Source: a virus
IMG/VR virus record: IMGVR_UViG_3300047160_009070
Location: 31,320 to 95,319 of that record
Reading direction: 5' to 3' (one strand)
DNA length: 64,000 nucleotides
Below the pieces are notes generated by a model, which saw nothing but the letters and a program-made list of their open reading frames with translations, had not been told where the DNA came from and did no database searches. Shown here piece by piece: positions 2,639 through 30,793 of this stretch. The first letter of the stretch is position 1, and each line of letters opens with the position of its first letter. Both the position numbers and the translations under genes were made by a program.

Positions 2639-2980
2639 ATGGCGGTTGACGTCGTTCAGGAGGAGTGGCATCCGAGCCACATCACGGCCAGGACGGCGCA
2701 GGCGATTTCTGACGACATTCGCCGCCAGGTAGACGCCGATCCTGAGCTTGCCGCGCTTGAGGCGCAGCGCTGCTACCGCGAGTTCAGGGAGCAGCGGTAT
2801 GAGGCCCGGCGGCACCAGCGCCGGGCTCGTCGTGCGATATTCCGCGCCAAAACGTTCCAGCGCGACCTTGAGGCGCTCGGGATCACCGTGATCTTCGAGC
2901 TGGGCCCCCGGGAGCGCGCCCGTCAACTCAACGCCACAGAAGGAGGCGACAGTGACAACCAGGCAGCGCAAGCCACCTAG
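2639..2980 (+). CDS. Hypothetical protein
   Basis: ORF filling the gap between the tail tube and chaperone genes. Confidence 0.5.
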   Translation: MAVDVVQEEWHPSHITARTAQAISDDIRRQVDADPELAALEAQRCYREFREQRYEARRHQRRARRAIFRAKTFQRDLEALGITVIFELGPRERARQLNATEGGDSDNQAAQAT

Positions 2981-3509
2981 CGAACAGACGCCGGCTGCGA
3001 ACGGCGCGGTGCCGGAGGAGGACTCCAGCAAGGTTCTCGATCTGATCAGCCTCACCCCGAGCCGCAAGCTCGTGAGGCTGCCGACGAAGGACCATCCGGA
3101 GGGGGAGACGTTCGAGTTGCGGCTCGTCGACGATTTCGGGATCGAGATGCAGCAGAAGCTGCTCGCATGGAGCCGGCAGTTCACCAATCTCATGTCGTCG
3201 GAGGAGGAGCTTGACGACGACCAGGCGGCACGGATGCGGTTTCTTCTGGAGAGCCTGTTCGAGCAGGTGCTCGGCCCGTCGCCGGACATGACGAAAACCG
3301 AGTTCGCGGACGCGAGGCGGGGTATGGACGACGCGGTTCGCCACCGGGTGGTTCAGGCTTTTTCGTGGGCGCCGGTGCTGGCGCGAAACGAGTTGCAGAC
3401 CGAGTTGATCAAGCGGCTGGTGGACAGGAAGTATCTGAAGCAGGAGCAGGTGGACGAGGTGATGGACGAGCTCAGGCTGGAGTTGACGAGGTCGACTTCG
3501 GGGAGTTGA
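2952..3509 (+). CDS. Tail assembly chaperone (G-like)
   Basis: RBS AAGGAGG with GTG start; acidic helical protein between the tail tube and TMP genes. Confidence 0.7.
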   Translation: MTTRQRKPPSEQTPAANGAVPEEDSSKVLDLISLTPSRKLVRLPTKDHPEGETFELRLVDDFGIEMQQKLLAWSRQFTNLMSSEEELDDDQAARMRFLLESLFEQVLGPSPDMTKTEFADARRGMDDAVRHRVVQAFSWAPVLARNELQTELIKRLVDRKYLKQEQVDEVMDELRLELTRSTSGS

Positions 3510-3868
3510 TCCCCAGGCTGCATGAGCTCTACGGGCCGGCTGATCCTGTGTACGGGTCTTGGTGGGATGTGCCCGCCAAGAAGTTCTGGGCGTACGTGCG
3601 GATGATGCCGGTGCTGCGCGCCCGCGCGTCGATCTCGAGGATCAACGAGATGTCGTTGGCGTTCGGGTCGATGCAGAAGGAGACCGCCAACTCGTTCATG
3701 CTGCAGCTGAGGACGGCGGCGACTTTGGACAGCGGCGACAGCGGCCCGAGGGTGTACCGGCCGCGGTCGCCTGCCGAGATGGCCGGTCTGGCTGGTGCGG
3801 GTACGGCGGTGGTGATGGAACAGGGCCCGAGGACACGCTCCTCCGCAACCCCGGTCGGTACGCCGTGA
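3506..3868 (+). CDS. Tail assembly chaperone T-like segment (-1 frame relative to 2952..3509)
   Basis: Overlapping -1 frame reading ...EVDFGELIPRLHELYG...WWDVPAKKFWAYVRMMP; classic G/GT arrangement, or TTG start at 3506. Confidence 0.6.
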   Translation: MIPRLHELYGPADPVYGSWWDVPAKKFWAYVRMMPVLRARASISRINEMSLAFGSMQKETANSFMLQLRTAATLDSGDSGPRVYRPRSPAEMAGLAGAGTAVVMEQGPRTRSSATPVGTP

Positions 3869-4010
3869 GACGCCGTGTAACGCGTTCTGAGCGGCCGGAC
3901 CGTGTACCGGCCCTTGGCCATGCACACACCCCGCGGGGCGTGACAGGCGCCTGCAGGCGCTGCGAGACGCAGCAAATTGACAGGTCGAGGAAAGGAGGTC
4001 CGGTACTCTC

Positions 4011-7000
4011 ATGACAGAGTACCTTTGACCTCGGCGATGCCGTCCTCGAGTTCGACGGGGACATCGAGCCGCTCGCGAGGAAGGTCCAGGAAGCCCACCA
4101 GATGGTCAAGACCGGCCTGGACGGAATGGGCCGTGAGATCCAGGGCTTCACCGCACTGGCGATCCGTTCGGGGCAGGAGCTCGAGCTTGCGTACATCCAG
4201 CCGCTGAAGCGAGGCTTCGACGAGCTTTCGCTCGCCGTGTTCGCCTACCACGAGCGTCTGACCGGGGTGATAGGCGTCACGCACGAGGCTGCGGGCGCGA
4301 TGCTGCAGCTGGGTGCCGCGTCGTCGCAGATGGCGGAGCAGACCGTCCGTGCGCTCGCCGACGTGCGGGGTGCTGTGGAGAGCACGGCGCTGCTGATCAT
4401 CGCGGCTGCCCGCAGCGAGGTTGACGCGATCAACGAGGTGACGGCCGCGTATCTGCGCCAGGCGGCGGCTGCTCGTCTCGCGGGGGGCAGTGCCGGGGTG
4501 ACGCTCGCGGCGGGTGCGCTTCCGCTTCCGTCGTTGCGGGCGGGGGTTGCGCCGGCTGCTCTCGGCCCCGCCCCGGGGCAGCCGCTCGCCGGCAACTACC
4601 GGATTTGGGGTTCGCGTGGTGACGCCGCCCCCGGCTCGATGGTGAACCCGGTTGTGGTCGCGATCGAGTCCGGCCAGTACGCCGGTCTCGGCGCACGCGC
4701 CGCGGCGCTCGGGTTCACGGCGGGCGCCCAGCCGTCCGGGTCGATCCTCGATCCGGTCACCGCCCAGGCTTTGCGTGACATCGCGCAACGCCAGATCGCT
4801 GCGGCGCCGGCGTTGACGCCGGGGGAGATCATCACTGCCGCCAGGGCGCTGCCGCAGGAGGACCTGCGCCGGCTGGTGGGAATCCTGGACCGCCCGATCG
4901 CCGGCGGCGCCGGTCCACCGATCGACTGGCGGCCGGACCCGACGTTCCGGCGTGCCGTCCAGTCGGTTTTGGCGGGCGGTCCGTTCGCCGAGCCGAACGT
5001 GTCGGTGTCGGGTTTGCAGCGGTCGCTGCAACTGCAGTACACGCAGGCGCTCCAACTCCAGAGACAGCTTCAGCAGGTGGGTCTGATCGAGTTGCGGTCC
5101 GGCGGCGGGTTCCGGGTTGTTCAGCCGAAGGTGCAGGAGTACCAGCGCCTGATGTTCGGCGCGACCGGTCCTGCGTTCCCGGGCGCCAGCTATGGCCGTG
5201 CGCCGACGGGCGAGATGGCCGGGATACCGCAGCCGGCCGAGCGACTCGACATTTTCGGGGCGCTCGCCGAGCAGCAGGCTGCACAGGAGGCGCAGATCGC
5301 ACAGCAGCAGGCTGATCTCGCGAGACAGGAGGCGCAACTCGGCCGGCAGATGTCGCTGTTCGAGGGGATGGCCCGCCGCGGCGGGATCTGGCCCGGTGTC
5401 GTGGCCGCGATGGGTCCCGAGCCGCTCGGGCCGTACGGGCCCGTAGGCCGGTTCGCGTACCGGCCTTTGGGGGTTCCGGGTGAAGCCGAGACCGGGTATG
5501 AGGCTCTGAGGGCGGGTGCGACCGGTGCGACTGCCCGCCCGACGTGGATGGGCGGGACGGTCCTGCCGCCTGAGCCGACGGTCAAGATCGACGCTGCGCA
5601 ACTCGCGGCGCTTGAGGCTGCTCTGAAGGAGGGCCGGATCAGCCAGACGCAGTTCGATGCGCTGTCCTCCGCGCTCGCGCTCGGCGGCACCCCCGGTGCC
5701 CCCGGCGGGGGAGGCGGAGGCGGAGGGGTTCCCCCGGTGGCTGTCGGTCCACCCGGTGGCGGAGGCGGCGGAGGCGGCCGTGCCTTGTGGCCTTTGGCGC
5801 TGGCTGCTCTGTGGGGACGCCCGACTCTCGGCGCACGAATCCCGTTCACTCCGTTCTCGCTGCCGATGGCCGGGTTCGGAAGCCTCGGCTCGCTCGCCGG
5901 TCTCGGCCCGGAGCATTGGCTGATGACCGCTTTGGGGATCGGCGGGTTCGCTGCCGCCGGCGCCGCCGGCGCGGGTGCGATAGCGCTCGGTTCGGCTGGC
6001 ACGCTCGCGGCCGGTGCCGGCTCGAACGCGGCTGTGATGTCGTCGACGATCAAGGACACCCAGACGCTGTCGCAGGCGATGACTGCGGTGCAGACGGCGC
6101 AGCAGAACGTGGCGCAGTCCCAGGCCGCGTATGCGGCGGCGGTTCACCAGTTCGGGCGCAACTCGACGCAGGCGACAGCCGCCGCGAGCCAGCTGACGGG
6201 CGCCACCAACACGCTGACGACCGCCCAGCAGAACTACAACAGCACCGTCAGCCAACTCGGAGGCCCGCGCGCCCCGGGTGTGCAGGCGGAGATCCAGTTG
6301 GCGAAACAGACACAGGCGCTCAACAAGTTCTGGGACCAGCAGACGCAGATGGCCCGGGTCGCCGCGGTGCACGTGCTCGAGCAGGTGGTGCAGCTGGGTC
6401 ACGACTACGTGCCGCTGGTGGCGCAGGCGGCGCAGCAGAACCTGACGATCATCAACCAGGACATCAAACCGTTGTTCTCATGGCTCGAGGGTCCGCAGGG
6501 AAGAGGCATCTTCCTGCAACTCGAGGACCAGTTCAAAAGGACTCTGCCGACCGCGATCGACGCGTTCTCCAAGGCGATCGAGGTTGTGCTGCGGGTCACG
6601 CAGGTCGCGTCCCAGTACAGCGGCACGTTCGTCTCCTGGCTCGACAAGTTGGTGAACCGCTTCAACAGCATGTCGAACGTCCAGTTCGCGAACACGATCC
6701 GGCGGCTCGTCGGCGACTTCCGGGACTGGGAGAGGTTCGCGAAGGCGATCGCCACCGACCTGTATCTGCTGTTCAGCCAGGACGTCGGCACCGGCAAGTC
6801 GATCATCACCACGCTCACCACCATGCTCGAGCATCTCGGCAAGTGGGAGAGCTCAGTGAAGGGGCGCGAGGAGATCCGCACGATCTTCGACGTGCATCTG
6901 CACGAGGTGCAGGCGCTGCTCGGGATCATGCCGAAGCTGTTCGGCGTGTTCGGCCAGCTCTACATGACGTTGGCGCCGCCGCTCACCCAACTGATGACGC

Positions 7001-10000
7001 TGATCTTGGATGTGGTGAAGGCGCTCGAGCAGATACCCGGTGGTGCGTGGGTGCTCGGTTTGGGGTTGCTGTTCAGCAGGCTCGGTATTCTCGGCGGTGT
7101 CCTCAGAGGTCTCGGACGGGCGCTCGGGATCCTCGGTGCCGGTGAGGCCGTCGCAGCAGCCGGTGGTGTGGCAGCCGGGGGGGCGGGTGTTGCGGGTGTC
7201 GGTGCTGCTGGCGTTGCCGGTGCTGCCGCAGGCGGTGGCCTGCTGGCGAGGATGGCACCGACCGCGATCGCGACACGGTTGCTGGGAGGGCTGTCCAGGC
7301 GTCTCGGGATGGGTGAGGCAAGCGCGCTGCTCGGCTCCGCTGTTCCGGCGCTCGCCGGCACGATCGCGGCGGGTGGTGGTCTGCTTGCTGGTGACTTCGT
7401 CCAGCACCTGTTCGGTCTGCGCGGCGGGACTGGGACGACGGTCGCCGGCGGTGTGGTGGGAGGTTTGCTCGGTGGACTGGCCTTCGGCCCGTGGGGAGCG
7501 GCGATCGGCGCCGGTATCACCTCGGCGCTCCTTCCGACACTCACGCACCTGTTCGATCCTAGCCGTCCGACTCCTCGCCTTCCGAGGGGCACGGTGGAAC
7601 GTCCGGTTCTGCCCGGCATGGACACACGGTTCGCTGCGGTGCTGCAGCGGGGACCGGGTGCTCTGAGGGAGTTCATCACGCAGCCGCGTGAGGTTGTTGG
7701 ACCGGGAGGCAGAGCGACAATGCTGCCCGGCCAGAGCCTCGCCGATGTTGCTGCGACCAAGGAGGCGGGGGCGGCGCTGGACCAGTGGGTGAAGTCCGCC
7801 ACTAATTCGGCGAACGTTGCCCAGATGAACGTCGGCCAGTTGAAGGCGATGCGCCGCGAGGGGCAGGCGCTACGGGAGATCTTCCCTGACGCTGCCCCGA
7901 TCATCAACAAGGCGCTCGGGGATATTCACAGCGGCATCATCGGCGCGATGGTGCCGATGCAGAAGCTCTGGGGCACCGTCATCAACCGCTGGCAGGACGA
8001 CACCTCCAAGGGTCTCGGTTCGATGGTCGACATCTTCAACAGCAACATGCGGCTGATCGACACCAGCGCCGGCCAGGGGTCGACGCACGCACGCCAGGTA
8101 ATGCGCGCGAACCTGCAGAAGATGGTGGACGACGTCACCGCCGGGATGGCCGCCGGAACGATCTCGACGAAGGCCGGGATGGACGCGATCAACAAGGCGA
8201 TCGCCGAGGGCTCCAAGGCCGGCGCGATCGGGTGGGAGATGGCGACCCACGACCAGTTCACGACGCTGATGGCGTTGCACGACGCCCACAAGATCAAGGT
8301 GTCGACATACATGCGGGACCTTGGCGGCATATACCGGACCGGGTTCTCGAACATCAAGCAGGACACCGAGAACCAGTCGAAGGCGATGCACGACTATCTC
8401 GACGCGCAGGAGCACAAGGGGCTGCTCACCCACCACGCGGCGATGCAGGCTTGGCACACCTACCAGCTGCAGGCCAACCAGCAGGAACAGGCCGACATGT
8501 CGCACTTCTCCGGCAACATCATCAATGCGCTCGCGAAGGCCGGTGCCGCGTCCGGCGGTGCCGTCGAAGCGATCCTGAAACCCCTGCTGCAGGCGCTGAA
8601 GGCGCTGGGGGTGTCGTCGTCGAGCGTCAGCCAGGTCGAGGCGGCGATCAAGGACGCCCCCAAGTTCGCCGGCACCTTCCTGAACGAGGTGACGCAGGGA
8701 CTGCCGATCGGGATCGGCCCGCAGGCAGCCGGTTCCACACCCGGCGGCGCGATCGGCACCACCACCGGTCACGGCCAGCACGGTCTGATGATCCAGTTCG
8801 GGCAGCCCGGCCAGCGTGGCCAGGACACCATCCACGCGAACTTCGGCGGCCAGCCGGTGATGGTCGCTCCCGGCGAGGTGGGGATGGTGCTCACCGGCCA
8901 GCAGCAGAACTTCCTGAACACCCGTCTCGCCGACGTCGGTGGCCTCCCCGGCATGTTCTCCACCGTCAATCAGCCGCACGCGCAGGGTTGGGGCTGGGGT
9001 GAGGGATACCAGCGCGGAGGGATGATGCTGTCCTACAGCCAACTCGAGGGGCTGTGGATCAGAGCCGGCGGTCCGCCTGCGCTCGCGTCGACGATGGCGT
9101 CGATAGCGATGGCCGAGTCGGGTGGCCGCACCAACGCGTACAACCCGTCCGGCGCGTCCGGTCTGTGGCAGATCTTGGGGTTGCCGTTCCCCGGCAACCC
9201 GTTCGACCCGATGACGAACGCCAGGATGGCTGTCACAAAGTTCCGCACCCAGGGGCTCGGCGCCTGGGTGACGTACACGTCCGGCGCCTACAGGAGCTAT
9301 CTGCACGGCGGGGTGCCTCCGTCGATGACCGCGTTCCCGCACATCCCGGTTCCCCACATCACCGGCACCGGGGCGCTCGCCGACATCGTCCGCGGCGGCG
9401 CGACGATGCTCACCCACGACGCGAACGCGTTCCTTGCACGCCAGGTCGGCCGGATGGCCGGTCGCGCTGGCGCGGGTGTCCCGTTCACCCACGGGATGCT
9501 GACGTTCCCGCTGCCGGCTGGGACGTGGCGCGGCGAGAGCCTCGACATGGGGTGGGACATCGCCGCCGCAGGCCACACACCCCTGTACGCGGTGGGTGCC
9601 GGCACGATCGTCGGCCACGGGATCCCCGGGTTCGGCCCGTGGGCGCCGATCCTCCAACTCGCATCCGGCGCCCGCGTCTACTACGGCCACGCCGGTCCCG
9701 GCCACGAGCTCCCGGTCGGCACCCATGTCAGAGCCGGCCAGATCCTGGGTGAGGTGGGAGCCGGGATCGTGGGTGTGTCCACCGGACCGCATCTCGAGAT
9801 CGGCTGGTATCCGCCGGGGAGTGCGTCGGGTGCGTCGATGAAGTCGGCGCTCGGGTTCCAGCATGGCGGCATGGTGTTCGCCCAGCGGGGCCACTTCCCC
9901 GGTCAGCATGCACCGGTTGGCCAGACGTTCGCCGGCCAGACAGTCACCGGCCACACCCGGTCGGGGACCGCCGTCTCCGGTTCGGGCGCGAGCCGCCTGT

Positions 10001-11712
10001 ACTACTACCAGGGGACCGGCTGGATCACCGGAGCCCAGCTGCAGAACATCTACAACCGCCGTTACGGCCACCATCCCGCTCCCGGCTCCCCCGGCGCTGT
10101 GCATACTGCACCTGTCGTTCATCATCGCCCCGATCCGCTGCTGACGGACATCGTGGATTTCTACGACCAGGCGGGCTTGATGGGGCAGGACAGCCCGCGG
10201 GGTGTGGGTGTGACGGTCCCCCCGGAGATCAACCTGCTCGGGAGGATCACCGAGCGGATCACCGGCCTTCGCGCCCAGGGCCTCCCGTTGGGAGGTCCGG
10301 TCAGCCTGCTGACGGGTTTGGGGAGGGTGTCGGGCGGAGGGTTCGACGCGATCCAGGCTGCGCTGAACCGGGCGATGTCAAGAATGACCGCAAGCCAGGC
10401 GTACGACCTCGCGCTGGACTACGGCCGTGCGCTGGGACGCCACCCCGCCGCACCCCGGCTGGCTGCGGAGCGCGAGCTCCGTCTTGACGAGCGTTCGCTG
10501 AGCCGTCTGACCGGCGAGATGCACAGGATCAGCGCGGAGCGCAGAAGCGAGCGTGCTCTGATGATGAAGGAGCACGGCAACCAGCGAGCTCGTACCGGCC
10601 AGCATCTGCGCAAGCTGCGGGACGAGGCGCACAGGGACCATGTGGACGCACAGAAGATCCGTACCGACATCGCCCACGACATGCACACCGTCGCCGCCGG
10701 GCGTCCCGCCGAGGTTCTCACCACCATCCTCACCCATGCGCTGACCGGCATCTCGAACGTGTTCACCCACCAGCAGGACCAGGCGAGCACGCTCAGCTCG
10801 TTCACCAGCGCGATCGGGAGCGTGCTGCCGAGAACGCCGCTCGCTCAACTCGGCCTGTACGGAACGCCGGGGCGCCGGGCGCTGGCACGAATGGGCCTCA
10901 CCCCGCGTGACGCTCGCCTGCTCGAGGGCGGCACCGCGTACGGCGCCCAGATGGTGCAGTACGACATCTTCAGCGACCAACTCGCCCAATACCAGCATGA
11001 CCGGGCGCGTCTCGGCGAGCTGTACCGGCAGGCTTTGAAGACCCACAACAAGAAGCTGCAGAACTCGATCCTCGACGAGATCAACACGGTCGACACCGCG
11101 ATCGCCTCCACCGAAGGGGACCGCCAGACCGCCCTGTTCAACGCGATCCAGGCGAAGGCCGGCCAGATCGGCCTGCCCGCCCAAAGGATCGCCGACCAAA
11201 TCACGGGGCTGCAGGCGATCCAGGGACTCGCGCCGGGAGCGAACATCGCCGGTCTGCTCGGCGGCGCGAACATCGTCCAAACCCTCGGGCTGGGCGGCGC
11301 GCAGCCCGGCACCGGCCTGTCGTATTTCCAGAACCTCGCGTCCGCGCAGGGCGGGACGCTCACCGCCAGCCAGATCGCGGCCGCCACCGCCGGCGTGAAC
11401 TCGATGAACGACATCCTCCGCAGCGAGATGGCGCCGCTCCAGAAAGAACTCCAGTATTACGAGCACGAGCTTCCTTCCCTGTCCGGCACACAGCGCGACA
11501 CGGTGATCAGCGCGATGAACGGTTTGGCGCAGCAGATCTTCGGGTTGCAGGGCTCGATCGACACGAACACCACGTCGCTGAACCAACTCACGGGCGCCAC
11601 GAACGCGAACACCAGCGCCACCGGCCAGATGACCGGCACCGTCGCCTACGCCTACCAGGGCCAGAACTGGCTGGCGTCGGTGACCGGTCCGAACGTCACA
11701 CAGGGAATCTGA
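4011..11712 (+). CDS. Tape measure protein with lytic transglycosylase (~9020-9310) and M23 peptidase (~9500-9820) domains; N-terminus needs recoding at 4023-4032
   Basis: 2536-aa ORF from 4102, Ala/Gly-rich; AMAESGG...ASGLWQI (SLT-like); GWDIAA...YYGH...STGPHLE (M23); RBS AAAGGAGG 3991-3998 precedes ATG 4011, which hits TGA after 5 codons, while LGDAVLEFDGD continues in the TMP frame. Confidence 0.9.
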
Positions 11713-11717
11713 AGTGA

Positions 11718-14700
11718 ATGACCGTCATCGTCTCGCCGACACCCCTCGGTCCCCCAGCCCCGCCCAGTGGCTGGAACGTCGTGTTCGCGGACGGGTTCGA
11801 CCAGGCGTCCGGGCTGTGGACCGGACCGTCCGGCGGGTGGGGCCCGAGCCGCAACAACAACGCCGGCAACGGGATCTACCAGGCTCCGTTCAACACCAAC
11901 GAGGTGGAGGCGTGGACACAGGACTCGGTGACCGTCGGTCCCGGCGGCCTGATCCTGACAGCCACCTACATCGGTTCGACGACAGCCACGATCGACGGCA
12001 GCAGCCGCACGTTCCGCTACAAGTCCGGGTGTGTCACCACACAGCCGTTGCTGCCGTCCGGTGGCCAGACCGGGTTCAACATCAACGGGTTCACGTTCCA
12101 GGTCCGCCCCGGGTTGACGTGGTGCCACGAAATCGTCTGCACGCTCCCCACCTATTTCGGCGCCGACCCGGCGTTCTGGTCGCAGGGACCCGGCACCGGC
12201 CAGATCGAGAACGACCATCCGGAGTGGACGTTCTACGCCGCCGACCACACCTCCACGGCGCTGGAGCAGGCGCTGATCGACTGGAGCTCGCCCGGTCCGC
12301 CGCAGGTCGGCTACGAGTCGTTCAACGTCGCCCAGATGACCGACGGGGTTCAGCACACATGGACGACGGTGATGGACGGCACCGCCCGGCAAACCAGGCT
12401 GTACATCGACGGGCACCTGTTCTCCACGTTCAACTGGCTGTCGAGCTTCGCCGGTTCGACACCCTCCTACATCGGCTCCAACTATTTCATCTCGCATGCG
12501 CTGCGTGACGCCTACACCGGCCAGTACCCGTCGTTCACCGACACGCGAAACTTCACGGTCCGCTCGGTGGTGTGCTACGCCCCCACGTCGCAGGGCACAA
12601 CAGGCACCGTCGGCGGTGGTGTCGCCCCCGGAACGCTCGTCGGCTCGCCACCCCCTCCGCCCCCACCACCACCCCCGCCTCCTCCCCCGCTGCCGCCGCC
12701 GAGCGGCACCGGCAATCCGTCGCTCTCAGGCCACTTGACCTCAGCCACCCCCGTTCTCCAGATCGGCCGGCTTGCGCTCGGCCCACCGACGATGCCGATC
12801 ACCGAAAGTGTCGGGGATCCCGTCGGCCAGGTCGGCGCGACGATCGTCGGCGCCCCGCGTGTGCCGTTGCAGATCACGCTCGACATCAACACGATCCTGA
12901 GCGGCTCCTCCACCGTCGCGCACGCCCAGATGGTCCGCCGGCAGATGCGCTCGATGCTCGGCAACACCCCACTGAAGCAGCAGTGCTTCCTGTATGTGGT
13001 GTACACCGACGATCCGGAGCAGAACGGCTGGATCATCCCGCAGCCCACTTCGTTCACCAGCCCGGACGGGACGGCATGGAAGGCGGTGGCGCTGTGGGAG
13101 ACACCGTCCGCCACCTGGTATCTCGCCGGCCGCAAACGCTCGATGCTCGAGGCACGGTCGATATGGATGAAGGACCTGCGGACCGGCAACTACGAGCGTG
13201 ACGTGCTCGGCTGGATCGTCTCGCAGGACTTCAACGCGCTCCCGGCGCTGCAGATCGTCGCGATGCCGAACGGCTCCATGTCGATCTCCAACTCGGTCAG
13301 CGACGCACGGCTCCCGTCCACCAACATGCCGGCAGGACGCGACGGCGGCATCGCCCAGCAGGTCCTCGGCGCGGTCGACCTCGACTTCCTGTGCTATGAG
13401 CGTTCGGAGGACACGCTGAACCTGTCCGACGTGGTGGTGTACGACCGGCGTGGCGTGATCTCCGGCTCGTTCTACCGGTCGGTGATCGTGAACGACGCGC
13501 CGAGCCTCTGGTACCGGATGGACGAAACGTCCGGCTCGACGATGGTCGACACGATGGGGAACGCGAACGGCACCTACAACGGTACGTCCACGCCGAACCT
13601 GTGCCCGTACCCGCTGACGCACAACTCGGGGGACGTGTCCGGCTGGTCAAGCGGCGCGGTCGCGGCGGTGATGGTGTCCGGCGCCACCCTGTCGTGGGTC
13701 ACCTCGCCGCTGCCGCAGTTCGGTGCCCCGGCCGACGCGAGCCTCGGCGGCGAGATGCAGATCACCACCACAGCGGCAGCCAGCGAGGGAGCGAGCCTGC
13801 TTCTCGGGGGCACGTTCCTGATCAACGTCCCGTACCGCATCGACGTGTATGTGCGAGGAAACTCGGGTGGCGAGACCGTTCAGGCGGGTGTCGGCGACCC
13901 CGCCGGCGACTACGTGTTCACCAGCGCAGCGACTCTCACGAACACGGGGTGGACGAGGATCGGCATCAACTGGACACCGTCCGCGAACCGAACCAACGTC
14001 CACATCTTCGTGCGGACCACCGCCGCGTCCGCGATGACGTTCTTCCTGAACGCCGTGCAACTCACCCAAACCCCGTCCGGCGTCCAACCCTATTCCGACG
14101 TGCAGAGCTACATGCTCGGGCAGTCAGGAGCCCTTGCGGCATCCGGCGACACCGACGCTGCCGTCCTGTTCGACGGCTACACCGGCAACGCGACGGTGCC
14201 GTTCAATCCGGCGTTCGCGACCCCGCAGTTCAGCTTCGAGTTGTGGATCAACCCGGAGGTCACCACCAGCGCCACCAACCAGTCGGTGGTGTTCACCGAG
14301 GTCACCAGCGGTGGCCGGTCCGGCGGCTACGGGCTCAGCATCCTTCCCGGCGGAACTCTCAGGATCACGATCTTCCATCCGGACGGGACGAGCCTGACGT
14401 TCAGCGGCAGTTCACTGGCGACCGACGTGTGGTCGCATGTTGTCGTCACCTACGACGGGGCGATCGTCTGGATGTACGTGAACGGGGTTCTGGGACCGAG
14501 AGTCTCGTTCACCAACTACGGGCCCCCGTTCGGGACGCTGACGCTCGCGGCGAACGGTCCCGGCGCTGTCGGCCTGTTGAACGCCGACATCGACGAGGTC
14601 GCGTTCTACAACTATGCGCTGACCGCAGCCCAGATCGCCGAGCACTACAACGCGGGCACCGGCATGGACGCCGGCGTGGTTCCCACCTCGATCAGCGGCT

Positions 14701-29991: not shown

Positions 29992-30793
29992 ATGCGATTC
30001 GTGGACCGACCGGGGCCTGCTAGACCGAACATTCTGATCTACGGGCCCCCGTAAGGAACCAAAGGTGGGTAAGACGGCGGGTGCGTGCTCGTCGGGTTTG
30101 GGAACGATCCTGTTCAACCTCGATCTCCCGAACGCGACCCGTTATGCCCGTTCCAAGAAACGCGATCCGGACGGCAGGGTGATGGAGGTCGAGTTGCCGC
30201 CGTTCGAGGAACGCAAACTCCCGGTCTTCGATCTGATGGGCGAGATCTCCCGGTCGGTCGCCGATCCGCGCCAGGAGGTGGCGGAGGTGGTGGTCACCGA
30301 CCCGATGGGCGAGCTTTACCGGCGTCTGCTGGAGGAGGTGTCGAACCGGTCGATCCATCCGACGTTCGATCACCGGCTGTGGGTGACCACCCAGATCGAG
30401 CGTTACTGCCGGTTCCTGTGCGAGCTGCCGACCATTTCGGCGATCTTCGTGTGCCACGAGCTTCCGGTGAAGGACGAGTCGACCGAGTCGTTCGAGCGGT
30501 TGCCGTTCACCGGCACCACCAACATCAATCTCGGCGCCAAGTTGATGTCGATGGTGGATGTGATCGCCTACGCCGGCGTGTCGGTGCAGGAGAACGGCGC
30601 GAAGGAGTACGGTGCCCAGTTGATCATCGACCAAGGGCGCCGCGGCGGGGACCGGTTCGATTGTCTGGGGGACTATCGCCCGCTGGATTTGAAGGACTGG
30701 TTCGCGGCGATCGCTGGGGCGGAGGTTGCCGATCTCAGCGCTGAGACCAGTAGCGAGGAGCCTGCCGGGAAGCCGGTGGCGGAGGCGGCGTGA
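29992..30793 (+). CDS. AAA_24/Sak4-like ATPase interrupted by a 10-nt stop-containing gap (30052-30061) inside Walker A
   Basis: MRFVDRPGPARPNILIYGPP* then, in the +1 frame, KVGKTAGACS...VVVTDP...IFVCHE...MVDVIAY; joining gives GPPKVGKT. Confidence 0.8.

Follow-up and report, generated by a model that had tools for sequence, protein, structure and literature searches.

Natural examples of short-distance translational bypassing are few. A 2016 review by Atkins and colleagues noted the paucity of known cases, and a natural stop-hop, in which an in-frame stop codon is skipped, was not known to it. The best-matching case is the large terminase gene (g6/7/8) of Streptomyces phage phiHau3, which carries two 10-nucleotide (nt) inserts, and the terminases of the StrepC.1 and S. 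catenulae prophages carry 7-nt inserts (PMC10732093). Bypass in phiHau3 was proposed in 2013 (Smith et al.) and gained support in 2023, when the full-length product was detected in Streptomyces and, with UAA in place of UUA, mass spectrometry in E. coli yielded a peptide spanning the junction; it is still termed a candidate bypass (Antonov et al., PMC10732093). In T4 gene 60, the bypassed gap is 50 nt long and is part of a mobA homing-endonuclease element (bioRxiv 10.1101/2022.08.31.505936). Here we describe a candidate short stop-hop at the fifth codon of the tape measure protein (TMP) gene of a viral contig from IMG/VR (record IMGVR_UViG_3300047160_009070). The contig is a metagenome assembly of 95,319 nt and 66% GC, with a CheckV completeness of 82% and an IMG/VR class of linear. 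The window that we analyzed is the 64,000-nt stretch at bases 31320-95319 of this record, and positions below are those of the window unless the contig is named.

The start of the tape measure gene

Direct reading of positions 3991-4060 bore out, letter for letter, the layout given in a preliminary description of this DNA, in which a Shine-Dalgarno (SD) sequence precedes five codons and a TGA, and the long TMP open reading frame (ORF) continues in the +1 frame (Table 1). The SD, AAAGGAGG, is separated from the ATG at 4011-4013 by 12 nt, a rather long spacing. The TMP frame (coordinate mod 3 = 1), an ORF of 2,560 codons, is closed by the TGA at 4012-4014 and contains no ATG, GTG, or TTG before the ATG at 4102, with the nearby ATG and TTG both being out of frame. 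The only non-canonical start that we could consider in this frame was ATC at 4063, which lacks a usable SD and was rejected. Coding signal nevertheless begins well before ATG 4102, as the GC content at third codon positions (GC3) in the TMP frame is about 0.9 from roughly 4027 on. Over the 29 start-less codons at 4015-4101, GC3 is 0.86 and the corresponding second-position value (GC2) is 0.31. The contig has 102 ORFs with a strong coding signal, and of these the TMP ORF is the sole one on the plus strand with a coding-like leader that has no start codon.

Only a full HMMER scan yielded relatives of this N-terminus; searching 1.84 billion representatives with the first 400 residues encoded in the +1 frame returned five matches. 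A word-based protein search with the same 400 residues found no match, as did Megablast and tblastn searches of the region against 50,697 phage records. Four of the five relatives begin MTEVLGEAVLDL, VTEVLGEAVLDL, MEVLGDAVLDL, and MEELGVAILEL. The fifth (P0002) derives from the same phage on an independent 1,923-nt Joint Genome Institute contig, is identical at 150 of 153 residues, and has a gene call that also begins at an internal MVKTG. Pattern locus searches with the window protein, P0002, P0003, and P0004 in viral, metagenome, and genome contigs found nothing. We also ran a degenerate DNA pattern for LG[DE]AVL[DE][LF]xxD on IMG/VR and obtained 42 loci, including 34 genuine TMP starts that read M-x(2-6)-LG[DE]AVL[DE]L behind an SD. 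One further locus (L031) looked like a close motif match and was set aside as chance, lying on a contig of 53% GC. The leader before LG is 3 residues long at 9 of the 34 TMP starts, 4 at 19, 5 at 1, 6 at 3, and 7 at 2. The commonest length, 4 (19/34), is the one that a 7-nt hop would produce, and none of the 34 starts is interrupted.

Because the N-termini of relatives match MTEYL, these sequence comparisons strongly support that TMP starts at ATG 4011 and that MTEYL corresponds by homology to the genuine N-terminus of this family. They also support the earlier proposal that this gene needs recoding at codon 5, since the codons in the ATG frame are homologous to TMP N-termini and the LG[DE]AVL motif is found without a start in the +1 frame. 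We consider it very improbable that TMP starts instead at ATG 4102, or by re-initiation after a 5-codon mini-ORF, with MTEYL as an unrelated leader peptide. ATG 4102 is the first start in frame and was picked by gene callers in both assemblies, and a weak SD-like AGGAAG lies 8 nt upstream of it, so that the earlier remark that this ATG has no clear ribosome-binding site was slightly overstated. However, a start at 4102 would remove LG[DE]AVL[DE][LF], the most conserved N-terminal motif of the family, which lies 3 to 7 residues from the start in 34 phages, and this start is therefore rejected. The resemblance of MTEYL to the MTEVL of homologues, the coding composition of 4015-4101, and the lack of ATG, GTG, and TTG across these codons likewise speak against it.

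As a separate observation, the signature M-x(2-6)-LG[DE]AVL[DE]L-x2-D is common to 34 otherwise diverse phage TMPs and could anchor the annotation of TMP starts.

Table 1. Coordinates of the TMP start, of the two sister sites, and of the upstream ORFs
Feature	Position	Strand	Details
SD AAAGGAGG of the TMP gene	3991-3998	+	Direct reading; GAGGTC (3995-4000) forms the 5' side of the outer stem
Two-tier RNA hairpin (predicted)	3995-4032	+	Inner stem 4002-4009/4016-4023; outer stem 3995-4000/4027-4032
First five TMP codons, MTEYL	4011-4025	+	ATG ACA GAG TAC CTT; candidate take-off codon CTT 4023-4025; homologues start MTEVL, VTEVL, or MEVL
Coding gap, TGA (4026-4028) plus C (4029)	4026-4029	+	4 nt between candidate take-off and landing codons; missing from all homologue N-termini
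Candidate landing codon CTC	4030-4032	+	Direct reading; same tRNA-Leu(GAG) as CTT, full Watson-Crick pairing
TMP body, +1 frame	4033-11712	+	Resume codon GGC at 4033; open frame to 11712
DUF5131 site, ACT TGA CC	Contig 14446-14453, outside the window		Candidate 5-nt skip; landing codon ACC; Pfam PF07505
Sak4-like AAA_24 ATPase site, CCG TAAGGAA CCA	30049-30061	+	10-nt displacement inside Walker A
Putative tail assembly chaperone ORF (G-like), frame 0	2952-3509	+	GC3 in frame 0; directly upstream of TMP
Putative -1 frame extension (T-like)	3483-3868	+	Overlaps the end of the G-like ORF; GC3 moves from frame 0 to frame 2 near 3480-3510

Sister sites and the RNA hairpin

Two more genes of the contig, encoding a DUF5131 protein and a Sak4-like ATPase, share the layout of the TMP site, with a stop next to a codon, then a short gap, and then a synonym of that codon. 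At all three sites, the stop comes immediately after the take-off codon and the synonymous landing codon lies at the colinear position, with codon pairs of CTT/CTC in TMP, ACT/ACC in DUF5131, and CCG/CCA in Sak4. In DUF5131, the take-off Thr corresponds to position 25 of PF07505 and the His after the landing ACC to position 26, inside the Cys motif. As these two positions flank the gap, a 5-nt skip is exactly colinear with the family. For the Sak4-like ATPase, more than 40 homologues read YGPPK[ST]GKT, and a 10-nt skip gives YGPPKVGKT; a +1 slip would insert KEP inside Walker A. Neither the DUF5131 site nor the Sak4 site offers an overlapping +1 or -1 codon for re-pairing, and thus only a hop restores the conserved motif at these two sites. 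An alignment-based search of IMG/VR for Sak4 relatives returned three loci, all uninterrupted (3/3), and a pattern locus search with the Sak4 piece in viral contigs found nothing.

Rare codons are involved at each site. CTT accounts for 7.3% of Leu codons in the genome, the take-off codon ACT for 4.8% of Thr codons, and the landing codon CCA for 4.6% of Pro codons. Provided that a single wobbling tRNA serves both codons of a pair, its Watson-Crick partner would at all three sites be the landing codon, which for Sak4 assumes that tRNA-Pro(UGG) reads CCG.

Other observations concern the surroundings of these sites. The Sak4 gap holds an SD-like AAGGA just before the landing codon. The string GTAC..T TGA CC is common to the TMP site (4019-4031, GTACCTTTGACC) and the DUF5131 site (contig 14443-14453, GTACTTGACC), which may reflect a shared signal, an insertion mechanism, or chance. 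The gene calls of three Sak4 homologues (P0037, P0039, and P0054) begin right after the P-loop region (VLLLN...) and may represent either contig-end cuts or further Walker A interruptions. A homing-endonuclease gene of the HNH or GIY-YIG type does not adjoin any of the three sites. A genome-wide pattern of codon, stop, gap of ≤17 nt, and synonymous codon gave 88 mostly chance matches, missed the three real sites, and was discarded as having no discriminating power. CTTTGAC as a word is not enriched in the window (3 found versus 4.1 expected), so that any significance can come only from its position. The stop context was equally uninformative, as TGAC ends 15/63 ordinary TGA genes and is not clearly avoided.

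A two-tier hairpin is also predicted at the TMP start. In its inner stem, 8 bp form a perfect helix; the 6-nt loop holds the ATG, and the last base of the 3' arm is the first of the take-off codon. In the 6-bp outer stem, the SD core GAGGUC pairs with GACCUC, which is made up of the GA of the stop, the C of the gap, and the landing CTC. The hairpin has a minimum free energy of -22 kcal/mol (z score of -2.83), a stability that is reached by 1 of 200 dinucleotide shuffles. The frequency of perfect 8-bp hairpins is 0.35 per kb, and we estimate the chance of such a hairpin ending ≤2 nt from the take-off codon at about 0.002. As part of a structured element, the inserted bases speak against an artefact. 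Searches of 3300-4500 for Rfam families, promoters, and terminators gave no relevant match.

Possible routes across the stop codon

Two routes, a 7-nt hop and a +1 slip, lead from the ATG frame to the same TMP frame. When aligned by MAFFT with seven homologues that represent four clusters, the product expected from a 7-nt skip (CTT at 4023 to CTC at 4030, MTEY-LGDAVLEF) is gapless, whereas the +1 product (MTEYLD-LGDAVLEF) needs a 2-residue insertion. Since the 6-residue leader of the +1 product is within the natural range of 3 to 7, the TMP alignment alone favors the hop without settling the matter. Considered together, the nearest homologues and the two sister sites are better fitted by a hop than by a +1 slip. 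We tentatively regard the 7-nt hop as the candidate main route, with a confidence that comes close to even without reaching it.

Some features of the site pull toward the +1 slip, which as the main route we consider rather unlikely. In an RF2-type frameshift, peptidyl-tRNA-Leu(GAG) would slip from CUU to UUU and GAC would be decoded next, giving MTEYL-DLGDAVLEF (MTEYLDLGDAVLEF) in an RF2-dependent manner as in prfB. The CUU UGA C heptamer is exact and has a Tyr codon before it, and in E. coli prfB a Tyr codon likewise precedes CUU UGA C. The +1 path has no stop, and its product keeps LGDAVLEF intact behind a 6-residue leader, a length that is found in 3/34 natural TMP starts. However, the stimulator of prfB, a strong SD 3 nt before CUU, is absent, with only GAG at this place and AAAGGAGG ending 24 nt upstream. 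Moreover, the nearest homologues are without the two extra residues, the two sister sites of the same genome cannot use a 1-nt slip, and TMP has 7 extra bases rather than 1 relative to its relatives, with a cognate landing codon exactly at the hop position. The preliminary description had presented this locus as an RF2-like site gating TMP by a +1 shift or a hop. Recoding at codon 5 and the exact heptamer stand, but the internal SD of prfB is absent and so is its autoregulatory logic.

Other points count against the 7-nt hop as the main route. The gap lies on the exact prfB heptamer, and UUU is the first triplet that a forward-sliding tRNA would meet, so that the +1 route may dominate; the 6-residue leader of its product is a natural length, as noted above. 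The short hops in the synthetic E. coli constructs of Weiss and colleagues from 1987 were reportedly of low efficiency. A 5-residue peptidyl-tRNA is prone to drop-off, and a signal from the nascent peptide is impossible at this length. Furthermore, only at the TMP site does a 5' hairpin clearly stand out as unusual. The Sak4 site ranks at the 7.5th percentile when judged by the folding energy of its upstream window, and DUF5131 shows nothing. A 5' stem-loop with a flanking SD is thus present and statistically unusual at TMP and weak or absent at the sister sites, and we treat the hairpin as a feature of the TMP site and not as a rule across the three sites.

A reading in which the interruption is not decoded at all, being either an assembly or sequencing artefact or a lesion of a defective variant with dead TMP, DUF5131, and Sak4 genes, appears improbable to us. 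The source is a metagenome assembly with a CheckV completeness of 82% that IMG/VR classes as linear, and 0/34 related TMP starts are interrupted. Yet the lesions relative to homologues are 5, 7, and 10 nt long and not the 1-nt errors of homopolymers, and in all three an in-frame stop directly follows a codon whose synonymous counterpart occupies the exact colinear position, for which our rough estimate under random insertion is well below 1e-4. The inserted bases in TMP pair over 6 bp with the SD, and a coding start-less leader occurs in no other ORF of the 102. About 12 kb of adjacent ORFs are unbroken and the rest of the contig is intact, including ORFs of 2,560 and 1,437 codons. The second contig of the same phage also has the same truncated gene call.

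Four further explanations were considered and rejected. Reading of TGA as a sense codon does not account for the site, where the frame changes, and 41/63 genes end in TGA. For transcriptional slippage, the run of T is just 3 bases long, and for a -2 shift there is no codon for re-pairing. As for a suppressor or otherwise unusual tRNA, the contig encodes only tRNA-Met, tRNA-Arg(TCG), and tRNA-Gln(CTG).

We infer that ribosomes recode at the TMP site by one of the two routes and that competition with release factor sets the yield. We regard it as strongly supported that, after synthesis of MTEYL, peptidyl-tRNA-Leu sits on the rare wobble codon CUU with UGA-C in the A site. In the model that we favor, a 7-nt hop, termination would be slow there. 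In a fraction of ribosomes, the tRNA would leave CUU, the mRNA would slide forward, and the tRNA would re-pair with the fully cognate CUC 7 nt downstream. Decoding would then resume at GGC 4033 to produce MTEYL-GDAVLEF (MTEYLGDAVLEF, MTEYLGDAVLEFDGDIEPLAR) and the other ~2,550 residues of TMP. Such an event would be a short programmed translational bypass, or stop-hop, of the kind put forward for the phiHau3 terminase, with a stop as the trigger in place of the rare UUA. A prfB-like +1 event, with re-pairing at the overlapping UUU, may run alongside the hop. Ribosomes that terminate at the TGA would release a pentapeptide only. As an early gate, the site would thus hold down the output of a 7.6-kb gene for a low-copy virion protein despite its strong SD. 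With its end at the take-off codon and the SD paired to the landing site, the predicted hairpin probably restricts initiation and may also aid forward movement.

It is possible, although we would lean against it at present, that stop-triggered short bypass is a genome-wide expression device of this phage, with three unrelated genes, for the virion protein TMP, the Sak4-like recombination ATPase, and DUF5131, each containing a 5- to 10-nt gap that is hopped. If so, early, middle, and late functions alike would be coupled to the activity of host release factor, and the initiation SD, hairpin, and landing site of TMP would combine into a single compact switch. With three such sites, a phage would offer a compact natural test bed for short-distance bypass. 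Since the TMP site lies on the textbook prfB heptamer, the hop and the +1 slip would compete there for the same peptidyl-tRNA, and the site could reveal what determines slipping versus hopping. It could also reveal whether phages use release-factor activity as a sensor of host state. Gene callers truncate such genes, as in both assemblies of this phage, where TMP is called from the Met at 4102 and thereby loses the most conserved motif of its family.

Gene context and comparison with known recoding systems

The interrupted ORF is a phage tail tape measure protein by its great length, its place after a putative chaperone pair, its family matches, and its N-terminal LG[DE]AVL motif. We detected a weak match to phrog_58, a tape measure family (E value of 8e-5), and, in Pfam, a match to Peptidase_M23 above the cutoff, with SLT just below and SLT_3 below it. 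TMP homologues are 1,515 to 2,629 amino acids long. Within TMP, the stretch at 4936-5121 (residues 308-369 of the +1 frame) has a weak FtsK_gamma-like match (E value of 2.7e-4, below the Pfam cutoff) and a weak PHROG match to an FtsK/SpoIIIE-like protein.

Upstream of TMP, the putative G-like and T-like ORFs (Table 1) show a switch from frame 0 to frame -1 that is the usual chaperone arrangement before a TMP gene. The G-like ORF has no family match in PHROG or Pfam, and its name thus follows from its position only. The frame switch from the G-like to the T-like ORF must occur in the last ~8 codons before the TGA at 3507, and a canonical X XXY YYZ slippery heptamer was not found in the overlap at 3441-3509.

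Several known recoding systems share parts of the TMP site. Like T4 gene 60, the site has matched codons, a stop right after the take-off codon, RNA structure at take-off, and two out-of-frame ORFs that would yield one protein. In contrast to T4 gene 60, the gap would be crossed by a displacement of 7 nt versus 50, a nascent-peptide signal is impossible after 5 residues, and there is no adjoining homing-endonuclease gene. The proposed movement of peptidyl-tRNA-Leu from CUU over a stop to a nearby synonymous Leu codon resembles the synthetic stop-hops obtained in E. coli (Weiss et al. 1987, cited in PMC5009743), which were engineered constructs.

With prfB, the gene for RF2, the TMP site has in common an identical CUU UGA C preceded by a Tyr codon, and recoding there would likewise compete with RF2 termination and lead into the +1 frame. 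The TMP site differs from prfB in lacking a strong SD 3 nt upstream of CUU. Compared with its homologues, the TMP gene also carries 7 additional bases and not a single one, and a cognate landing codon is present at +7. Furthermore, the TMP gene does not encode a release factor, so that no feedback loop would form and the autoregulation of prfB has no counterpart here.

The closest precedent is the phiHau3 terminase. In the phiHau3 record that we read for this comparison (L003), the two sites are GGC-TTA...GGT and TCT-TTA...TCC, each displaced by 10 nt, and the g7/8 site has an 8- to 10-bp hairpin that ends just before the take-off codon. Both cases have a high-GC, actinophage-like host range, an essential late gene that is affected, and more than one site per genome. 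Similar to the phiHau3 inserts and their relatives (10 or 7 nt), the TMP insert disrupts the frame, is missing from relatives, and is framed by matched take-off and landing codons, with a slow A-site codon directly after take-off. In both cases, a stem-loop flanked by an SD also ends on or close to the take-off codon. The TMP site combines three features of short-gap bypass, namely, an insert absent from homologues, codons readable by the same tRNA, and a slow A-site codon. Unlike in phiHau3, the A-site trigger here is a stop (UGA or UAA) and not the bldA-dependent UUA, and the proposed regulator would thus be release-factor activity instead of tRNA-Leu(UAA). Another difference from phiHau3 is the location of the TMP site at codon 5, due to which the initiation SD and the bypass signals would be one element. 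Finally, three different genes are affected in this phage rather than one, with a 5-nt version among the sites.

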